The notes beneath the pieces are model-generated. The model was not told the DNA's origin. It was given only the letters and a program-made list of their open reading frames with translations, and ran no database searches. A stretch of DNA of 64,000 bases from Candidatus Bathyarchaeia archaeon (GTDB lineage Archaea > Thermoproteota > Bathyarchaeia > Bathyarchaeales > Bathycorpusculaceae): assembly GCA_049521795.1 (NCBI GenBank), contig JBEKOM010000011.1:39634-103633 (forward strand), written 5' to 3'. The position numbers were made by a program, and so were the translations under genes. Positions 39,482 to 58,042 of this stretch are shown piece by piece (within the stretch, counting starts at the first letter, position 1; each line of letters begins with the position of its first letter).

Positions 39482-39691
39482 CTAACGCCTTCTAGTTCGG
39501 CACGCTAGCTCGACAATCCAAAGCAATGCTGAAGCGGCAATCAAATACCAACCTGCTTGAGACAGGGTGGAGTTTGCGGTGAATCTCTCGGTTGTCGTTC
39601 CAAGGATTTCAAAGAGGCATCCGAAGAACAACATTTCAGGGGGAAGGTTCTTCGGATTTTCGAGCTTTATGTGCACTCTTGCTTTTTTCAT
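39482..39691 (-). CDS. Small membrane protein
   Basis: 69 aa, two hydrophobic segments, basic C-terminus. Confidence 0.4.
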   Translation of the reverse strand: MKKARVHIKLENPKNLPPEMLFFGCLFEILGTTTERFTANSTLSQAGWYLIAASALLWIVELACRTRRR

Positions 39692-42546: not shown

Positions 42547-43425
42547 TTGAGATTTGGAATCATAACGCGGAACAGAAACTCTTACAGTTCACTCCAAGTG
42601 CGGGAAGCCCTTGAAAGACGTGCAATTCCGTACGTGTGCTTCAGGTTTCCAAGGCTGATTGCGAGTGTAGGACATGCTTCGCTGACAAGGGTCGATAACG
42701 TTGACGTGCAGAAAGAGTTGGACGGACTAATAGTTCGCCCAATCGGGCGAGGCTCACTTGAAGAGCTGGTTTTCAGGATGGATGTCCTCTACAGACTTCA
42801 GCGTGCAGGCCTGTACATCATAAACCCGCCGGAGGCGATTGAACACTGTGCTGACAAGTACGACATCCTTGCTATCTTGGAAGAAAACGGCGTACCCGTA
42901 CCGCGCACAGCTGTGACCGAAAGCATCAGCGAGGCTCTGAGAGCTTTCAAGGAGTTAGGAGGCGACGTTATCGTGAAACCGATATTCGGCTCCAGAGGCA
43001 TAGGAGCCACAAGGGTAAACGATTCGGAAGTGGCTGCAACAGTTTTCAGGGCTGTAACATTCTATCATGGCGTCATTTATCTGCAGGAGTTTGTTGACCA
43101 CGGTTTTTCTGATATTCGCGCTTTCGTGGTTGGCAACCGGGTGGTCGCAGCGATGAAGCGTGTTGCACGCAGCTGGAAGACAAACTACAGTCAAGGTGCT
43201 AGGCCTTTGAAAATAGAGCTTGAAAAAGTCCATGAAGAAATCGCCGTCAAATCGGCCAAATCCATCGCTTGTAAGATAGCCGGAGTGGACATTCTTGAGA
43301 GCCCTTCTGGGCCTGTTGTGGTCGAAGTGAACAGTCAGCCAGGATGGCGTGGACTGCAGTCAGTTGCGACCGTTAACATTGCGGATGAAATTGTGGACTT
43401 TGTGCTTTCAGAGTTGAAGAAGTGA
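42547..43425 (+). CDS. RimK-family ATP-grasp alpha-L-glutamate ligase (MptN-like)
   Basis: DKY, PVPRT, KPIFGSRGIG, QEFV, DIRAFVVG, WKTN..QG, AGVDI, EVNSQPGW. Confidence 0.85.
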   Translation: MRFGIITRNRNSYSSLQVREALERRAIPYVCFRFPRLIASVGHASLTRVDNVDVQKELDGLIVRPIGRGSLEELVFRMDVLYRLQRAGLYIINPPEAIEHCADKYDILAILEENGVPVPRTAVTESISEALRAFKELGGDVIVKPIFGSRGIGATRVNDSEVAATVFRAVTFYHGVIYLQEFVDHGFSDIRAFVVGNRVVAAMKRVARSWKTNYSQGARPLKIELEKVHEEIAVKSAKSIACKIAGVDILESPSGPVVVEVNSQPGWRGLQSVATVNIADEIVDFVLSELKK

Positions 43426-44210
43426 GAAGCGTGCGAGAAGTTGAAATTCTGAGAATCGACGTTTCTAGCAGACAAGCAAATCAGATGAAAGACTGCGTAG
43501 CGCAGGAAAAGCCAATGCACCTTTTCTTAAACCGAACATTGTACGCCACCATTTTCTGCACTCCTTCAAAACTGAAGGAATTGGCGGTTGGGCATTTGGT
43601 CTCTGAGGGAATCTTAAAATCGATTGAGGAGATTGAAGAAGTCAACCTGAAAAAGGATGTTTGCAGGGTTAAGCTGAAACCCAGCGTTGACTTGAACAAA
43701 AGGCTAAGCTTGTCGAAGCATTTTCAGCGAGTTATTCTTTCAGCCTGCGGAAGCACGGGAACGTATACTCCTTCGCAAAGGTTGCCCAGAATCAAGTCAA
43801 ACTTGACGATCAAAGCAGAGACGGTGCTTGATTGCGTCAACTCTCTGAATCGCGCCGCAGAAATCTTTAGAAAAACCGGCGGGGTACACGCTGCTGCGAT
43901 TTTCAGCAGCGATGGAATTCTTATGGCTTCAGCTGAGGACGTTGGTCGCCACAACGCGGTCGACAAAGTTATAGGCATCACGATGATGCGCAAGACTAAT
44001 CTTGGAAAATGTTTTCTCACCTTGACTGGAAGAATGACAGGCGACATAGTGATGAAAGCGGCAAGATTAGGAATGCCCGTCGTAGCTTCCATGGCAGCGG
44101 CCATAGATTCTGGAATTGCTATTGCGAAGAAAGCCGATTTGACTCTGGTTGGGTTCGTCAGAGGGAAGCGCATGAATGTTTACAGCGTTCCTGAACGAAT
44201 TTTGTTATGA
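43422..44210 (+). CDS. fdhD: Formate dehydrogenase accessory sulfurtransferase FdhD
   Basis: TP..L.ELAVG.L.SEG, SACG, F..TGGVHAA, EDVGRHNAVDK.IG, GFVRG. Confidence 0.92.
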   Translation: MRSVREVEILRIDVSSRQANQMKDCVAQEKPMHLFLNRTLYATIFCTPSKLKELAVGHLVSEGILKSIEEIEEVNLKKDVCRVKLKPSVDLNKRLSLSKHFQRVILSACGSTGTYTPSQRLPRIKSNLTIKAETVLDCVNSLNRAAEIFRKTGGVHAAAIFSSDGILMASAEDVGRHNAVDKVIGITMMRKTNLGKCFLTLTGRMTGDIVMKAARLGMPVVASMAAAIDSGIAIAKKADLTLVGFVRGKRMNVYSVPERILL

Positions 44211-44220
44211 TGAAGCTCTT

Positions 44221-44856
44221 TCAACAGACGGAGGCTCTATGTCTGTCAAGAATTCCCTTGAGTGATGTGGCCGCTTGTTCAGGGCTCTTCGCTTTAAGGA
44301 TGGCTGAGGTGACGGCTATTCCATCCGCTCCAGCTTCAAGAACAAGGTGGGCGTTCTTTGGAGTTATGCCTCCAGCAGCAAATATCGGAATCGTGGTTCT
44401 GGATTTCGCAGCTCTGATCGTCTCAAGAGGCACGGTCTCGCATTGAGTGGCAGAAGACGTTGGAAAAATAGAGCAGAAGGAAACATAATTCGCTCCCATG
44501 GATTCGGCCCACTCTAGCCTTCTCAGGTTATTTCCCAATGTGTAGCCAACTATGCATCGTTCACCAAGTATTCGCTTGACCTCGTCTGGTACGACATCGT
44601 AGCTGTCGAAGTGTAACCCGTCGGCTTTGATCTCCTTAGCTAAGAGACAGTTGCCGTTGATGAGGAAAGGTACATCGAACTGTTCGCTCAGCTTGGATAA
44701 ATCTTTGGCCACCTCTAGCGCTTCGGAGTTTTGTCTCCCAGGAACGAATTGAAGCACGTCGACGCCTCCCTTCAAGGCTTTCTTGACCGCACTCAACACT
44801 TCATGAGAAGGTAAGATAGGGGCAATAACTAAGTACAGGCCTTCTAGCCTTTTCAA
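44221..44856 (-). CDS. ThiE/TenI-fold protein with degenerate pyrophosphate-binding site
   Basis: GLYLV, GGVD.LQ, ADGLH, IFPTSS, AAGGI, AGADGIAVTSAI; QxRxK, ND and TxTK motifs altered. Confidence 0.8.
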   Translation of the reverse strand: MKRLEGLYLVIAPILPSHEVLSAVKKALKGGVDVLQFVPGRQNSEALEVAKDLSKLSEQFDVPFLINGNCLLAKEIKADGLHFDSYDVVPDEVKRILGERCIVGYTLGNNLRRLEWAESMGANYVSFCSIFPTSSATQCETVPLETIRAAKSRTTIPIFAAGGITPKNAHLVLEAGADGIAVTSAILKAKSPEQAATSLKGILDRHRASVC

Positions 44857-44861
44857 ATTGG

Positions 44862-45929
44862 TTACTTCCGTCCTTCGCGGGAAGCTTTCCAGTAGGCTTC
44901 CCAGTAGGGGTCAGTCTTGGGTTTTTTCAGAGGTTGTTTTGCTCCGTCTTTTCTAACCCATCTGCCATCTTTAGAGCGTTTGACTTTGCCAATCACTTTG
45001 CTTCTTATCCCTTTCAAACTCAACTCATGTATGACTTCTTCAGCCTTTTCAGGATTCGCGCTGATCAACAGAGTTCCTTCGCTCAGAGTTGAATAGGGCG
45101 ATAGGCCGAAAAGATCACACACTCGTTTTGCTTCCTCAGTAACTATGACGTCGGTAAGCTCTATTTCCAGTCCAACGTGCGAAGCTTCAGAGAATTCGTA
45201 GAGGGCTCCAAACAAGCCTCCCTCTGTAACATCATGCATAGCTGTGACTCCTCGATCTCTTAAGCCAACAGAAGCCGCTGTCAATGCGTCCTCGACTACG
45301 CTAAACTGGCTCAGATATGATTGAGCTCTTTTCAAGAAAGATGTTCCGTAAGCCTTCTTAATTGTCTGAGGGAAGACTCTTGCAAGTATTCCGGTTGTCG
45401 CTATCGCAACACCTTTCGTCATTATCAGCAGGTCGCCTGGCTTGCTCATGCTGCTTGACACGTATTGTCTCTCTGGTACCACAGACATCATCACGCCTCC
45501 TCCTACAACTGTGTAGTCGGAACCAACGTATCTGCCGGTGTGTCCTCCGATGATGGCGATTCCTAGTCTTTTGCATTCAACGTGTATGTTCGTCCAGTAT
45601 TCTTCGAACTCTTCGTTGCTCATCCTGGGGGGAAGACTGAGATTTACCATCATGAATTGAGGCGGAAAACCGCAAGTAGCCAAGTCTGAGGCAAGCAGTT
45701 GTACTGAGAGATGTGCTGAGTCCTTAAGTCCTAATTCTGGGATCACCGATAGCGGATCAGCCGTCACGACGAGAACCTGATTGCAACCTAAGCGTACGAC
45801 CGCGTTATCACGACCATGGCCGGGTCCAACGATGACGTCTGCCCTTTCTGCTCCTAATCTGGGGTAGACAGCTCTCTCAATTAGATCCAACTCGAATTTC
45901 CCGATCTTCGGTTTAGTCATAAGCATCAC
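44862..45929 (-). CDS. AIR synthase (PurM)/HypE/ThiL-superfamily ATP-dependent enzyme
   Basis: G.DNAVV, TADP, SDLAT.G, IGGHT, PGDL, AMHDVTEGG, SEGTLL. Confidence 0.85.
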   Translation of the reverse strand: MMLMTKPKIGKFELDLIERAVYPRLGAERADVIVGPGHGRDNAVVRLGCNQVLVVTADPLSVIPELGLKDSAHLSVQLLASDLATCGFPPQFMMVNLSLPPRMSNEEFEEYWTNIHVECKRLGIAIIGGHTGRYVGSDYTVVGGGVMMSVVPERQYVSSSMSKPGDLLIMTKGVAIATTGILARVFPQTIKKAYGTSFLKRAQSYLSQFSVVEDALTAASVGLRDRGVTAMHDVTEGGLFGALYEFSEASHVGLEIELTDVIVTEEAKRVCDLFGLSPYSTLSEGTLLISANPEKAEEVIHELSLKGIRSKVIGKVKRSKDGRWVRKDGAKQPLKKPKTDPYWEAYWKASREGRK

Positions 45930-46599
45930 GGAACTTTACTGCTAATCCGAGGTAAGAACCAAACGGGAAAAAGGCTGATTCTTGGCTGCCGAGAGCTTTC
46001 GGAAAGACTGTTGTGCTCCAATAGTCAACGGTGTGCGTGTTGTGAAAGGTTTTTCTCAATATCCGCTTTATGTCTAGGATGGAGTAGAACTTCGCGTTTT
46101 TGTAAAATGGGTTCTTTCCCATCTTAACTTGGGCAATCCTCCGGATAGTGCTTAGGCTCCACTTGTTCATGAGTCCGATGATCATTCCTTTTCGAGCGAC
46201 CCTTGCGGCTTCCTGAAAAACTGTGCCGACATTCGGCATGTACTCTAGGCACGCTATAAAGGCTATTACATCAAAAGACCGGGATTTGAAGGGCAAGTGG
46301 TGAGATTCACCTTGTATCAATTGTCCATTAGGCCAGTGCTTCCTCGCTTCAACAAGCATGAGATGTGACAAGTCAAGCCCGCAGCATTCCAGCCCAAGAG
46401 ATTCCATCCATCTTGTGAAATGACCTGTTCCGCATCCCACTTCAAGCACTTTCTGTACATCACCAAACTGATTCAGAAGCTTCCTCAACAATTTCTTCTC
46501 AAGCACGTCTGCACGTCTGTACTTAGTCTGGTAGTATGCCTCGTATCCCTTGACTATTCGTTCCTGCAAATACCACGGTTCTTCTTGCATTCCACTCAT
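45913..46599 (-). CDS. Class I SAM-dependent methyltransferase
   Basis: VLEVGCGTG, GLDLS..ML..A, LPF....FD. Confidence 0.88.
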   Translation of the reverse strand: MSGMQEEPWYLQERIVKGYEAYYQTKYRRADVLEKKLLRKLLNQFGDVQKVLEVGCGTGHFTRWMESLGLECCGLDLSHLMLVEARKHWPNGQLIQGESHHLPFKSRSFDVIAFIACLEYMPNVGTVFQEAARVARKGMIIGLMNKWSLSTIRRIAQVKMGKNPFYKNAKFYSILDIKRILRKTFHNTHTVDYWSTTVFPKALGSQESAFFPFGSYLGLAVKFRDAYD

Positions 46600-47124
46600 C
46601 TAGGCTAGATAGGTAATGTCCAAATTTCTCCTGACTGCCACAAGAATTCCATAGGTTACTGGAACGAAAACAAGGTCCACCAATGTCCCGAAATCTAAGA
46701 TAGCCGTCCCGAACCCGAATGCATAGAAGTCCAGCCCAAAAAAGAGTAAGGTCTCAACTGCCACTCCGAAGATCATCGCGATTATCTCGTTTTTTTTACG
46801 AAGCAACCCCACGGTGAGACCCATCGGACCACGGGCAACTACTATTCCAAACAGAAACCAGTACGAGAACCCACCTGAAATTGTGCCTAACGTCGAGCCA
46901 AAAGAGTAGCCGATCGCAGATCCAATAACAGTCGAGATCAGTCCTGCTGCAGGGCCCAAGAGAATGCTTGTTACAAAGATAATAATCGGTGCCAGAGTTA
47001 TTGCGGCAAGCGGAGTGGGCATCGGTATGGCGATCACCGTTCCCACTGCAATCAAAGCAGCCAAAACAGATATCAAGGCAACTATTCTCGTTCGAGATAT
47101 TGGCACAGGTGTTTTCTGTTTCAC
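46600..47124 (-). CDS. ECF transporter S component, TPP-riboswitch controlled (thiamine/precursor uptake)
   Basis: TRIVALISVLAAL, IPMP, ILLGPAAG, 5-6 TM helices; directly downstream of the TPP aptamer. Confidence 0.8.
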   Translation of the reverse strand: MKQKTPVPISRTRIVALISVLAALIAVGTVIAIPMPTPLAAITLAPIIIFVTSILLGPAAGLISTVIGSAIGYSFGSTLGTISGGFSYWFLFGIVVARGPMGLTVGLLRKKNEIIAMIFGVAVETLLFFGLDFYAFGFGTAILDFGTLVDLVFVPVTYGILVAVRRNLDITYLA

Positions 47125-47220
47125 TTTTTTCCCTCCGCCAGCATTACCTGGATCAGGTTCTAAGGGTCGACGATGTTCAACCGTCCTCTCAGCCGGGTCA
47201 CAGTCCCAGCTCCCCGAAAC
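47125..47220 (-). ncRNA. TPP (THI-box) riboswitch
   Basis: Minus strand GTTTCGGGGAGCTGGG..CCCGGCTGAGAGGACGGT..ATCGTCGACCCTTAGAACCTGATCCAGGTAATGCTGGCGGAGGGAAA carries the CUGAGA, ACCUGA and GUAAUGC..CG.AGG consensus motifs with pairable stems. Confidence 0.95.
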
Positions 47221-47383
47221 CTATGAACGGTAGTGCCATCAATCGGTATAAAAGCGTTCTGGATGACACTTAACACTACGTAACCAACGAAACATGCGTT
47301 GCTTGGGAGATCGTGATCTGTTGCTGCTTCTCGCCGATCACACAGACTTAAAAACTTCATTGATCAATTAGTCTTGATGTTTC

Positions 47384-47947
47384 ATGGACAGACCAATCAG
47401 GATTCTGGGTTTTGCGGGGAGCTTGCGAAAAAACTCGCTCAACAAAGCACTGCTACGCGCCGCTGTTCAACTGGCACCAAAAAGTGCTGTGATTGAGACC
47501 TTCGACCTTGAAGGTATTCCGCTTTTCAACCAGGACTTAGAGACTCAACCGCCAAAGAAGGTCAAGGACTTCAAGGCCAAGATCAGAGATGCAGATGCAA
47601 TACTGATCGTCACTCCTGAATACAACTATTCCATTCCCGGCGTTCTCAAGAACGCGATCGACTGGGTTTCAAGACCATATTCAGACAACGCGTTTGACGG
47701 TAAGCCCGTGGCCGTTATGGGAGCATCGACAGGGATGCTAGGCACAGCGAGGGCACAGTATCACCTGCGCCAATGCCTCGTTTTCCTTAATATGCATCCA
47801 ACTAATCTTCCTGAAGTCTTCGTAACCTTTGCACGAGAAAAGTTTGATGAAAACGGCGGATTGAAAGACGAAGACACCAAGAAACACATAGTTAAGGCGC
47901 TTGAAAACTTGACCTCTTGGACTCTGAGGCTGAGAAAAGATGAGTGA
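47384..47947 (+). CDS. NAD(P)H-dependent FMN reductase (ChrR-like)
   Basis: GSLRKNSLN, TPEYNYSIPGVLKNAIDW.SR, GKPVA, GTARAQYHLRQ. Confidence 0.92.
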   Translation: MDRPIRILGFAGSLRKNSLNKALLRAAVQLAPKSAVIETFDLEGIPLFNQDLETQPPKKVKDFKAKIRDADAILIVTPEYNYSIPGVLKNAIDWVSRPYSDNAFDGKPVAVMGASTGMLGTARAQYHLRQCLVFLNMHPTNLPEVFVTFAREKFDENGGLKDEDTKKHIVKALENLTSWTLRLRKDE

Positions 47948-48069: not shown

Positions 48070-48885
48070 ATGAAATGTGAAGTGTGTGGCCAAGAAACAT
48101 TCCTACCGTTCCAGTGCCCATACTGCAACGGACAATTCTGTGAAGCTCACCGTTTGCCAGAAAACCACAATTGTTCAAGGATACATCTTGCCCGCGCACC
48201 GAAACAGGAGGAAGAATATGTTGTTTCGAGACCAGCCACGTATGAGTACAGGGTTACTCTTGGATCAACTCGGCAACATAAAGGACGAGTTTATTTCAGC
48301 CCGAAAGAAGTTAAGCATTTGACCATAGCTGCGCTGCTCGTCATCGCCGTCGGAATGTTGTCCGTTCTCTACGGCGGCATGTCACCTGAGGCTAGTTTGA
48401 GCATCTCTGTCGTCGCTTTCACCGTCATCCTGACCATGTCTTTTTTCACTCATGAAATGGCACATAAAATAACGGCCCAGAGAAGAGGTCTCTGGTCAGA
48501 ATTCAGATTGACACTCTGGGGCTCCGTTGTGACTCTAATCTTTGCGTTTCTGCCAATCAAATTCATTTCTCCAGGCGCCGTGATGATCGCCGGAGCCGCC
48601 GATAGAAAAGAAATAGGAGAAATATCCATAGCTGGACCCATCACTAACATCGTCTTGTCAATACTATTCTTCGGCACAGCGTTCGCATCAGGCCCGTATT
48701 CCCAGATCTTCCTCTTCGGCGGCTTCTTCAATGCCTACGTAGCCGCATTTAACCTCCTACCAATCGGAATTTTCGACGGACACAAAATATTCAACTGGAG
48801 CAAAGTAATCTGGGGCCTAGCCTTCGCCACAAGCGCAGCCTTAACAGCAATCGGCTTCATAATGTACTCACAATACCTACAGTGA
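48070..48885 (+). CDS. AN1-type zinc finger fused to site-2 (M50) intramembrane metalloprotease
   Basis: CEVC...PFQCPYC...FC..HRLPENHNC; HEMAH, AGP..N, FNLLP...FDG. Confidence 0.88.
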   Translation: MKCEVCGQETFLPFQCPYCNGQFCEAHRLPENHNCSRIHLARAPKQEEEYVVSRPATYEYRVTLGSTRQHKGRVYFSPKEVKHLTIAALLVIAVGMLSVLYGGMSPEASLSISVVAFTVILTMSFFTHEMAHKITAQRRGLWSEFRLTLWGSVVTLIFAFLPIKFISPGAVMIAGAADRKEIGEISIAGPITNIVLSILFFGTAFASGPYSQIFLFGGFFNAYVAAFNLLPIGIFDGHKIFNWSKVIWGLAFATSAALTAIGFIMYSQYLQ

Positions 48886-57943: not shown

Positions 57944-58042
57944 GGGCCCGTAGCTCAGTAAGGACAGAGCACCGGGCTTTTAAGCAAAAAGCTTTGCGCG
58001 GAAACCCGGGGGTCCCGGGTTCAATTCCCGGCGGGCCCGCCA
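57944..58042 (+). tRNA. tRNA-Lys(UUU) with 21-nt intron at 37/38 (57983-58003) and encoded CCA
   Basis: Acceptor GGGCCCG/CGGGCCC, D-arm GCTC/GAGC, anticodon stem CCGGG/CCCGG with CT-TTT-A, T-arm CCGGG-TTCAATT-CCCGG, G73-CCA. Confidence 0.92.

Follow-up and report, generated by a model that had tools for sequence, protein, structure and literature searches.

What does an operon do that places a transporter subunit, a methyltransferase and two relatives of thiamine enzymes behind one thiamine pyrophosphate (TPP) riboswitch? The question is raised by a locus in a 64,000-nucleotide stretch of DNA (the window) from a Candidatus Bathyarchaeia archaeon, comprising positions 39,634 to 103,633 of the forward strand of contig JBEKOM010000011.1 (assembly GCA_049521795.1). 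A preliminary description had proposed that the operon imports a thiamine precursor, breakdown product or analogue, e.g. an unmethylated pyrimidine or thiazole, methylates and phosphorylates it and feeds it into TPP by an undescribed route. On balance, we consider it probable that the operon serves TPP-repressed salvage of vitamin B1, in which an S-component, a PurM-like kinase and a methyltransferase/ThiE-like pair would supply the canonical kinase ThiL. The idea of a salvage operon following an undescribed route is supported by the gene set, the riboswitch linkage and the gaps in the thiamine genes of the host, whereas the methylated intermediate and the desmethyl precursor are not supported.

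A TPP riboswitch and four packed genes

The operon lies on the minus strand of the window and consists of the following elements, listed in the direction of reading:

47247–47253, minus strand: TTTTATA, a candidate archaeal TATA box seen in the sequence, about 24 nt 5' of the first base of the aptamer
47113–47226, minus strand: TPP riboswitch aptamer (Rfam RF00059; 66.6 bits against a gathering cut-off of 54.3, E 7.1e-11, model positions 1–105)
47132–47136, minus strand: GGAGG, a Shine-Dalgarno-like element 7 nt ahead of the GTG start and still within the conserved 3' portion of the aptamer
46600–47124, minus strand: energy-coupling factor (ECF)-type S-component, 174 aa, GTG start at 47124 (PF07155, 35.4 bits against a cut-off of 26.7)
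45913–46599, minus strand: class I S-adenosylmethionine (SAM) methyltransferase, 228 aa (Methyltransf_11, 73 bits)
44862–45929, minus strand: ATP enzyme of the PurM/ThiL superfamily, 355 aa (AIRS 51.5 bits and AIRS_C 74.8 bits)
44221–44856, minus strand: ThiE-fold protein, 211 aa (PF02581 TMP-TENI, 143 bits against a cut-off of 27)

The aptamer ahead of four packed genes is thus borne out by Rfam, by the open reading frames (ORFs) and by family profiles, and the packing is as tight as had been claimed: according to the ORF coordinates, the S-component and methyltransferase genes abut (0 nt gap), the methyltransferase and PurM-like genes overlap by 17 nt, and 5 nt separate the PurM-like from the ThiE-like gene. 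The four genes form a discrete unit, because the neighbors on either side (FdhD, 43422–44210; FMN reductase, 47384–47947) are encoded on the plus strand. The RF00059 match is the sole TPP aptamer in the host genome (2.44 Mb in 69 contigs, 98.75% complete). Since the GTG start codon of the first gene and the GGAGG element both sit inside the 3' part of the aptamer, control is likely translational, and TPP binding would probably sequester GGAGG. An alignment of aptamers places an ATG of the ortholog in genome G062 at the equivalent position relative to its own aptamer. TTTTATA may serve as promoter element.

The distribution of the operon was assessed by scanning one genome per species, which returned 80 loci: 20 of Bathyarchaeia type, 59 bacterial loci and one further archaeal locus (L078). 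The bacterial loci belong to Bacteroidota of many genera (58 loci) and to one gammaproteobacterium. The order methyltransferase, PurM-like, ThiE-like gene (henceforth the module) is kept in 78 of the 80 loci, as judged by tblastn with the four window proteins; the exceptions are L065, whose contig starts inside the PurM-like gene, and L078, which is a ThiT-type locus. All 19 archaeal module loci that are uncut at the respective end carry the S-component gene as well, which is found in none of the bacterial loci; in the latter, the three genes stand alone amid unrelated neighbors.

To locate aptamers, we used a covariance model (R1) trained on nine Rfam-verified aptamers. One same-strand aptamer was detected 5' of the first gene of the module in 77/80 loci, and the three misses (L065, L066 and L085) are contigs beginning inside the module. 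Rfam itself reported a TPP aptamer over cut-off directly 5' of the module in all five complete or near-complete carriers. The linkage of the gene set to RF00059-type aptamers, on which the preliminary description depended, therefore holds in 77/77 loci with upstream sequence and in 5/5 carriers by Rfam. The arrangement of aptamer and gene set is far beyond chance, because the same order with a 5' TPP aptamer recurs in 77 independent loci. At L114, L125 and L083 an ORF of ~796–798 aa is inserted between switch and module; in L114, the one scanned, it encodes a TonB-dependent receptor. In two of the five carriers scanned with Rfam, the only other aptamer over cut-off precedes a single TonB-dependent receptor gene.

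The bacterial module has a conserved fourth gene, which encodes a Trm112-like zinc-ribbon protein (PF03966, ~90 aa) and is located 3' of the ThiE-like gene in 58/59 bacterial loci (L068:7742-8020, L114:7682-7966 and 56 others). The single miss is a contig ending in the ThiE-like gene. In the host, the Trm112-like homolog is encoded far from the operon (G000:C1:617421-617684; G000 is the host genome).

One locus filed under a bacterial name, L049 of Candidatus Acidoferrum sp. (an acidobacterial metagenome-assembled genome, MAG), has all four genes of the archaeal form, S-component included, with 85% identity between its PurM-like gene and that of the window. The contig looks like Bathyarchaeia sequence binned into an acidobacterial MAG.

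Thiamine genes of the carriers and the PurM-like protein

Which steps towards TPP could the operon supply? The host possesses a canonical thiL gene separate from the operon (C5:99329-100285; 261 bits against a cut-off of 184.15). Profile searches of the host genome returned no match for ThiC, ThiN, TenA and TPK, nor were ThiD and ThiM found, and for Thi4 there were only short FAD-motif stretches of at most 29 bits in unrelated long ORFs. A 511-aa protein matching the ThiM/ThiD-family profiles (HK/Phos_pyr_kin) was rejected, as it consists of YjeF_N and Carb_kinase domains. The ThiE-fold gene of the operon is the sole one in the host genome. Hence, the operon appears to be this organism's only route to thiamine monophosphate (TMP).

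Apart from the host, 50 carriers were searched, i.e. 18 archaeal module carriers, 31 bacteria and the genome of L078. Absences refer to MAGs, whose completeness is known for the host and its GTDB relatives, not for the 50 locus-derived carriers. ThiD (TIGR00097) was over cut-off in 0/50 carriers, genuine ThiM in 0/50 (the only matches being archaeal YjeF-type proteins), ThiG in 1/50 and ThiC in 2/50 (G091 and G102, where ThiD-like genes of 139–151 bits adjoin ThiC). TPK exceeded its cut-off in four of 52 genomes, when the host and its relative G042 were included. By contrast, canonical ThiL is over cut-off in 48/50 carriers, and the ThiE-like gene of the module is the sole PF02581 gene in 45/50. 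Among the 61 relatives of the host, 21 encode ThiD, but neither G000 nor G042, the two with the module, does so. As ThiC, ThiD, ThiG, ThiM and TPK are nearly always absent while ThiL is kept, the module is read as the carriers' only visible route to TMP, and module and ThiL together are the only visible route to TPP in most of them.

The PurM-like protein has ThiL and HypE as its two best NCBIfam matches, both under cut-off (TIGR01379, 81.8 vs 184.15 bits; TIGR02124, 85.3 vs 251.6 bits), and the nearest solved structures are HypE (E 2e-12) and ThiL (E 1.4e-7) as well. The metal-binding/catalytic residues D41, D58, D82 and D233, which are common to ThiL, are invariant in 63/63 PurM-like proteins, so with this set intact the protein should be an active ATP enzyme. 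Relatives are abundant in metagenomes (>1000; the top 120 at ≥65% identity), and homologs are labelled "AIR synthase family protein" in one NCBI record of Bathyarchaeia and "HypE" by JGI. We rejected the latter label (hydrogenase maturation factor) on account of the low score, the position of the genes behind TPP switches and the lack of a C-terminal cysteine: in HypE this residue carries the cyanide precursor, and the last cysteine of the window protein is ~85 residues ahead of the C-terminus. Likewise rejected was the idea that the protein is the ThiL of this organism, given its 81.8 bits and the coexisting true ThiL on C5 (261 bits).

More can be learned about the substrate from loci in which the PurM-like gene occurs without the other enzymes. 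L078 comprises a TPP aptamer (58.3 bits), a gene for the thiamine transporter component ThiT (PF09515, 157.9 bits) and the PurM-like gene, and nothing further; in its genome ThiL is present, and ThiE, ThiD, ThiC, ThiM, ThiG and TPK were not found. The clade of this protein is represented in 30 of 301 Bathyarchaeia, 25 of the 30 falling among 43 genomes sampled from one family. Eleven of the 30 loci contain ThiT followed by the PurM-like gene, and in 13 an S-component relative (30–35% identical to that of the window) takes ThiT's place. Four loci carry the full module; in one, on a cut contig, the S-component gene is immediately followed by the PurM-like gene, and one is truncated. An aptamer is present in 28/30 loci, the remaining two contigs being cut. 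Of the 28 clade genomes tested, none has TPK and 23 have ThiL, including 10/10 high-quality ones; the five best genomes contain neither ThiN (0/5) nor ThiE (0/5). In the phylogenetic tree, ThiT-linked and S-component-linked proteins are intermixed and jointly form the sister group of the archaeal module clade (support 0.997).

Genomes with such two-gene operons are limited to intact thiamine, and an enzyme co-regulated with the transporter must then yield the substrate of ThiL. On the strength of these TPP-controlled operons, the lack of TPK and the absence of ThiE and ThiN from the five genomes tested, we propose that the PurM-like clade represents a new kinase acting on the hydroxyethyl alcohol of the thiazole moiety and feeding ThiL. 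The preliminary description had assigned it a methylated intermediate instead, which is at odds with its closest archaeal relatives being paired with ThiT alone; thiamine itself or its thiazole alcohol would be the likeliest substrate.

The S-component of the window is no ThiT according to the profile scan (no match to PF09515), and PF12822 remains under cut-off (21.5 vs 30.7 bits). Neither a ThiT (L078 ThiT as query) nor a second member of the S-component family was detected by tblastn in the host genome. Judged from the operons it shares, the protein likely imports thiamine or a thiamine vitamer. It is a solitary S-component and may act alone.

Three further observations concern this family. 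First, at L263 (G195:C111) an S-component gene (53% identical) is located directly ahead of a PurM-like gene (68% identical) with no methyltransferase gene between them, and the contig ends before the position where a ThiE-like gene could appear; the locus may be an intermediate between two-gene and four-gene operons. Second, ThiN and the PurM-like domain are fused, in both domain orders, in P0148, P0160 and P0202, three representatives of a wider family, and in ~35 of 80 metagenome loci from sediment and wetland (L141–L220). Ten fusion loci scanned with Rfam lack an aptamer, no methyltransferase is nearby, the neighborhoods are uninformative (NadA, PP-loop ATPase, peptidase), and different trees place the fusions differently with respect to the module clade. 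Such a fusion fits any enzyme adjacent to the TMP-synthase step. Third, a second PurM-like paralog, 33–39% identical, occurs in 54/61 related Bathyarchaeia genomes (host copy G000:C3:114088-115089, minus strand). It matches HypE with 118.7 and ThiL with 104.1 bits, both under cut-off, and no curated model was matched; it forms its own clade (including loci L021–L048), with no aptamer in 29 loci and no thi neighbors.

The methyltransferase and the ThiE-like protein

The ThiE-like protein had been called degenerate. At the level of profiles this does not hold, since the window protein scores 142.4 bits with TIGR00693 against a cut-off of 145.1 (the Bacteroidota form reaches 102 bits) and aligns over its full length to Bacillus subtilis ThiE (E 2.5e-25). 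It does hold for the pyrophosphate and Mg ligands, which are gone. This became apparent when 70 module orthologs were compared with three canonical ThiEs from carrier genomes, using B. subtilis numbering. We take R59, K61, D93, D112 and K159 of B. subtilis ThiE to be the pyrophosphate/Mg ligands, and the set from T156 to S209 to form the thiazole-phosphate site. Arg is found at position 59 in 0/70 orthologs (Trp, Ser, Val or Ile instead), K61 corresponds to a gap, and Asp at position 93 and Lys at position 159 are missing from all 70. D112 is lost in most bacterial members (Pro in 46/70). The window protein has V, a gap, G, D and A at these five positions, respectively. Residues kept are Q57 (69/70), N92 (64/70), H107 (70/70), S130 in the form of Thr (70/70), G188 (70/70) and S209 (65/70), and positions 156 and 158 are Ser or Thr in most orthologs; the window protein reads T, S, G, T and S at T156, T158, G188, I208 and S209.

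Other residues are gained. An invariant S126-F127-C128 replaces the canonical G-L-G, C139 is invariant too (C128 and C139 each in 70/70), and D84 is present in 68/70 orthologs (window numbering). All three canonical ThiEs from carriers retain R, K and D and lack the cysteines. On that reading, the sites for thiazole phosphate and for recognition of the pyrimidine would survive, while the Mg-pyrophosphate pocket would be replaced by a cysteine- and aromatic-rich one.

We also considered that the protein is a TenI thiazole tautomerase. This was rejected, as NF005819 yields 67.5 vs 251 bits and ThiG is present in 1/50 carriers; the TenI-like gene of G091 differs from the module type at the signature columns. 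Longer, fused ThiE-like forms did not turn up in a search at E ≤ 1e-20, a result that carries little weight. Separately, a Mucilaginibacter carrier has a second PF02581 gene (L265, G099:C1:2377400-2378500) that is neither canonical nor of module type, as N92 is replaced by Ala, D93 by Asn, K159 by Val and G109 by Asp.

As for the methyltransferase, motif I (E53-x-G55-C-G57-T58), D76 and D110 are invariant in 30/30 orthologs, and so is a set of aromatic residues. All 32 NCBIfam matches remain under cut-off, the best being BioC with 63.8 vs 184.95 bits. The nearest solved structures are uncharacterised proteins, and a search of the ESM Atlas returned generic methyltransferase clusters only. In its phyletic pattern, the methyltransferase accompanies every ThiE-like gene and is absent from the 24 two-gene operons. 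Judged by this pattern, the two genes seem to behave as one functional unit, which points to a methylation that would serve the ThiE-like step, whose pyrophosphate site is lost. The methylation of a desmethyl pyrimidine or thiazole, as envisaged initially, is chemically unlikely, as both methyls of thiamine are attached to carbon, at electron-poor positions of the rings.

A proposed route to TPP and its place among known systems

How could these proteins cooperate? In the pathway that we consider probable on balance, scarcity of TPP would leave the aptamer unliganded and the operon expressed. The S-component would import thiamine and/or a thiamine-derived vitamer, and the PurM-like protein would use ATP to convert thiamine to TMP and probably also free hydroxyethylthiazole to thiazole phosphate. 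Thereby it would replace TPK and ThiM, which were not found, and ThiK, which was not searched for. The canonical ThiL encoded elsewhere would convert TMP to TPP. The ThiE-like protein, forming an inseparable accessory pair with the methyltransferase, would bind thiazole phosphate and couple it to a pyrimidine donor other than hydroxymethylpyrimidine pyrophosphate (HMP-PP), a donor which the methyltransferase would make or activate with SAM. Anatomy, riboswitch linkage, phyletic patterns and active-site changes are observed here, whereas we infer every substrate as well as the chemistry of the pair.

Several points weigh against this pathway. Nothing identifies the substrate of the methyltransferase, and the methyltransferases otherwise known to have Trm112 partners modify RNA and protein. 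The PurM members known so far target amide or carbamoyl oxygens, phosphate or selenide, and to our knowledge no enzyme of the superfamily phosphorylates an alcohol. The module copy is 40–50% identical to the sister clade and could differ in function, and the related S-component of the two-gene operons is without a proven substrate. Negative results for thiamine kinases cover TPK, and the APH-family kinase ThiK was not searched for. The gene absences rest on MAGs, those of the 50 carriers being of no known completeness. Finally, G091 and G102 possess ThiC together with ThiD-like genes, so module and classical route do not strictly replace one another.

A more specific version, which we put forward tentatively and regard as somewhat unlikely, is that TMP is formed without HMP-PP: a SAM-methylated pyrimidine would be joined by a cysteine-type ThiE-fold enzyme to thiazole phosphate made by the PurM-like kinase. 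Here, an unphosphorylated pyrimidine from the environment would be methylated, and the leaving group of the resulting donor would be neutral or cationic. Candidates, as a matter of speculation, are the thiamine breakdown product aminomethyl pyrimidine (AmMP) or hydroxymethylpyrimidine (HMP). Equally speculative is that the cysteine enzyme might transfer the pyrimidine by a thiaminase-like covalent mechanism. In thiaminase I and TenA, the active-site cysteine attacks C6' of the pyrimidine, whereupon a leaving group other than phosphate departs; these enzymes may provide a mechanistic analogy, and have no relationship in sequence or fold to the ThiE-like protein.

Alternatively, the PurM-like protein could replace ThiD as kinase of HMP or HMP phosphate (HMP-P), in a pyrimidine salvage that ends in an ordinary ThiE reaction. 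The absence of ThiD from all 50 carriers as well as from G000 and G042, despite its presence in 21/61 relatives, would be explained in this way. Phosphorylation of HMP-P is ThiL-like chemistry, and the ThiN fusions (P0148, P0160, P0202 and ~35/80 metagenome loci) mirror the ThiD-ThiN fusions of archaea, although their unstable placement relative to the module clade weakens this parallel. We nevertheless think this replacement unlikely, as HMP-PP would be useless in the genomes with two-gene operons, which in the five cases tested encode neither ThiE nor ThiN, and as the ThiE-like protein of the module lacks the pyrophosphate and Mg ligands in 70/70 sequences. Moreover, thiazole phosphate would still be missing, with no ThiM (0/50 carriers), hardly any ThiG (1/50) and no Thi4 in the host.

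Could the PurM-like protein simply be a second TMP kinase or a one-step analogue of TPK, and the methyltransferase and ThiE-like genes mere passengers? It shares superfamily and four catalytic Asp residues with ThiL, which is among its two best NCBIfam matches, and TPK is missing in 48/52 and 28/28 carriers. However, a second TMP kinase would be redundant with the ThiL of 48/50 and 23/28 carriers and of the host, and would leave the step from thiamine to TMP unfilled. Passengers would hardly be co-inherited with the PurM-like gene in 78/80 loci of two domains, and we judge this explanation quite unlikely.

Another proposal exempts the pair from biosynthesis: methyltransferase and ThiE-like protein would form a damage-control or antivitamin filter, methylating or exchanging e.g. 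oxythiamine or methoxythiamine. As the two-gene operons illustrate, thiamine requires transporter, kinase and ThiL only, and the ThiE-like protein, in which the residues contacting the pyrimidine N and the thiazole phosphate are retained, could accommodate a molecule resembling TMP. Bacimethrin and methoxythiamin are reported from natural waters (PMC12345177). Yet a TPP switch activates during B1 shortage, which fits acquisition better than detoxification, the bacterial kinase never occurs without the pair (59/59 loci), and no hydrolase or exporter is linked, all of which makes a filter rather improbable. Highly improbable is the initially proposed import of a desmethyl pyrimidine or thiazole, its methylation, phosphorylation by the PurM-like protein and joining by ThiE: the order transporter, methyltransferase, ATP enzyme, ThiE does suit a linear pathway and the methyltransferase is an intact SAM enzyme by its motifs, but alkylation of the ring carbons of thiamine is not what one expects of a class I SAM enzyme, 24 two-gene operons show the kinase clade managing with no methyltransferase, the lost pyrophosphate site excludes an ordinary ThiE step, and no kinase is present for the second moiety. 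None of these explanations accounts for the ThiT-linked operons and the lost pyrophosphate site together as well as the salvage pathway set out first.

That pathway has precedents in its logic. ThiK followed by ThiL in enterobacteria, and TPK with PnuT or ThiT, likewise place both transport and trapping by a kinase under the control of a TPP riboswitch, and the two-gene operons of ThiT and PurM-like protein are the direct analogue of this type of salvage. The folds differ, as ThiK is of the APH and TPK of the TPK fold, whereas the kinase of the operon has the PurM/ThiL fold. With ThiL (TIGR01379) it shares the two-domain AIRS fold, the four catalytic Asp residues and, probably, a thiamine-type ligand, its score of 81.8 vs 184.15 bits setting it apart. 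TPP-controlled uptake, activation and coupling are also known from thiW/thiM/thiD/thiE salvage operons, from yeast THI6 (a ThiE-ThiM protein) and from archaeal ThiD-ThiN; the module differs in that ThiM and ThiD are missing, the methyltransferase is obligatory and the coupling enzyme has no pyrophosphate site. This coupling enzyme aligns to B. subtilis ThiE (2TPS, 1G4T) over the full length, but it lacks R59, K61, D93 and K159 and has acquired C128, C139 and D84. The bacimethrin cluster of Clostridium botulinum is, as far as we know, the only other thiamine-related cluster with a SAM methyltransferase. It consists of a thymidylate-synthase-like enzyme, the methyltransferase, ThiD2 and thiaminase I (PMC12345177). 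This cluster makes an antivitamin from CMP with other partner enzymes, and we liken it to the module by description only.

Whether taken from archaea or from bacteria, none of the three enzymes scores over the cut-off of an NCBIfam model. Our literature searches, with supplementary files and most subscription journals outside their scope, retrieved no description of the gene set or of a PurM-fold thiamine kinase. In agreement with the preliminary description, we found no described thiamine pathway that uses these enzymes. We conclude that the locus probably represents riboswitch-controlled B1 salvage with a new enzyme set; there is a real chance that the methyltransferase/ThiE-like branch performs new chemistry.

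Beyond the operon, three features of the window deserve mention. Relative to the model, a tRNA gene (57944–58039, plus strand, 59.4 bits) contains 22 inserted nt in the anticodon-loop region, and these most likely represent an archaeal tRNA intron. An ORF at 48070–48885 (plus strand) combines an N-terminal AN1 zinc finger and an M50 membrane peptidase domain in one protein. At 42547–43425 (plus strand), a RimK-family glutamate ligase is encoded, the best match being the tetrahydromethanopterin:glutamate ligase MptN (260.8 bits, under the cut-off of 350); its gene overlaps that of the FdhD sulfurtransferase (43422–44210, plus strand) by 4 nt.

The module looks like the sole route to the B1 cofactor in the host archaeon and in numerous bacteria of soil and sea. 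Among the carriers are Cyclobacterium, Algoriphagus, Mucilaginibacter, Chryseobacterium, Chitinophagaceae and many Bathyarchaeia, and because several of them are cultured strains, the proposals are directly testable. Genome-based maps of B1 production, demand and sharing in soils, sediments and the sea are drawn from ThiC, ThiD, ThiE, ThiG, ThiM, ThiL and TPK, and in 45/50 carriers only ThiL and the ThiE-like gene of the module are visible from that list. If the PurM-like protein is the missing kinase of thiamine or thiazole, this gap in the pathway closes and the PurM superfamily gains a new activity. If the pair builds TMP from a donor lacking pyrophosphate, this would be new cofactor chemistry, and further dissolved B1-related compounds would become nutritionally relevant. 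Should the route without HMP-PP prove true, it would add a third mode of pyrimidine activation and a new type of PurM reaction, as well as a source of B1 that predictions of auxotrophy have missed in Bacteroidota and Bathyarchaeia.

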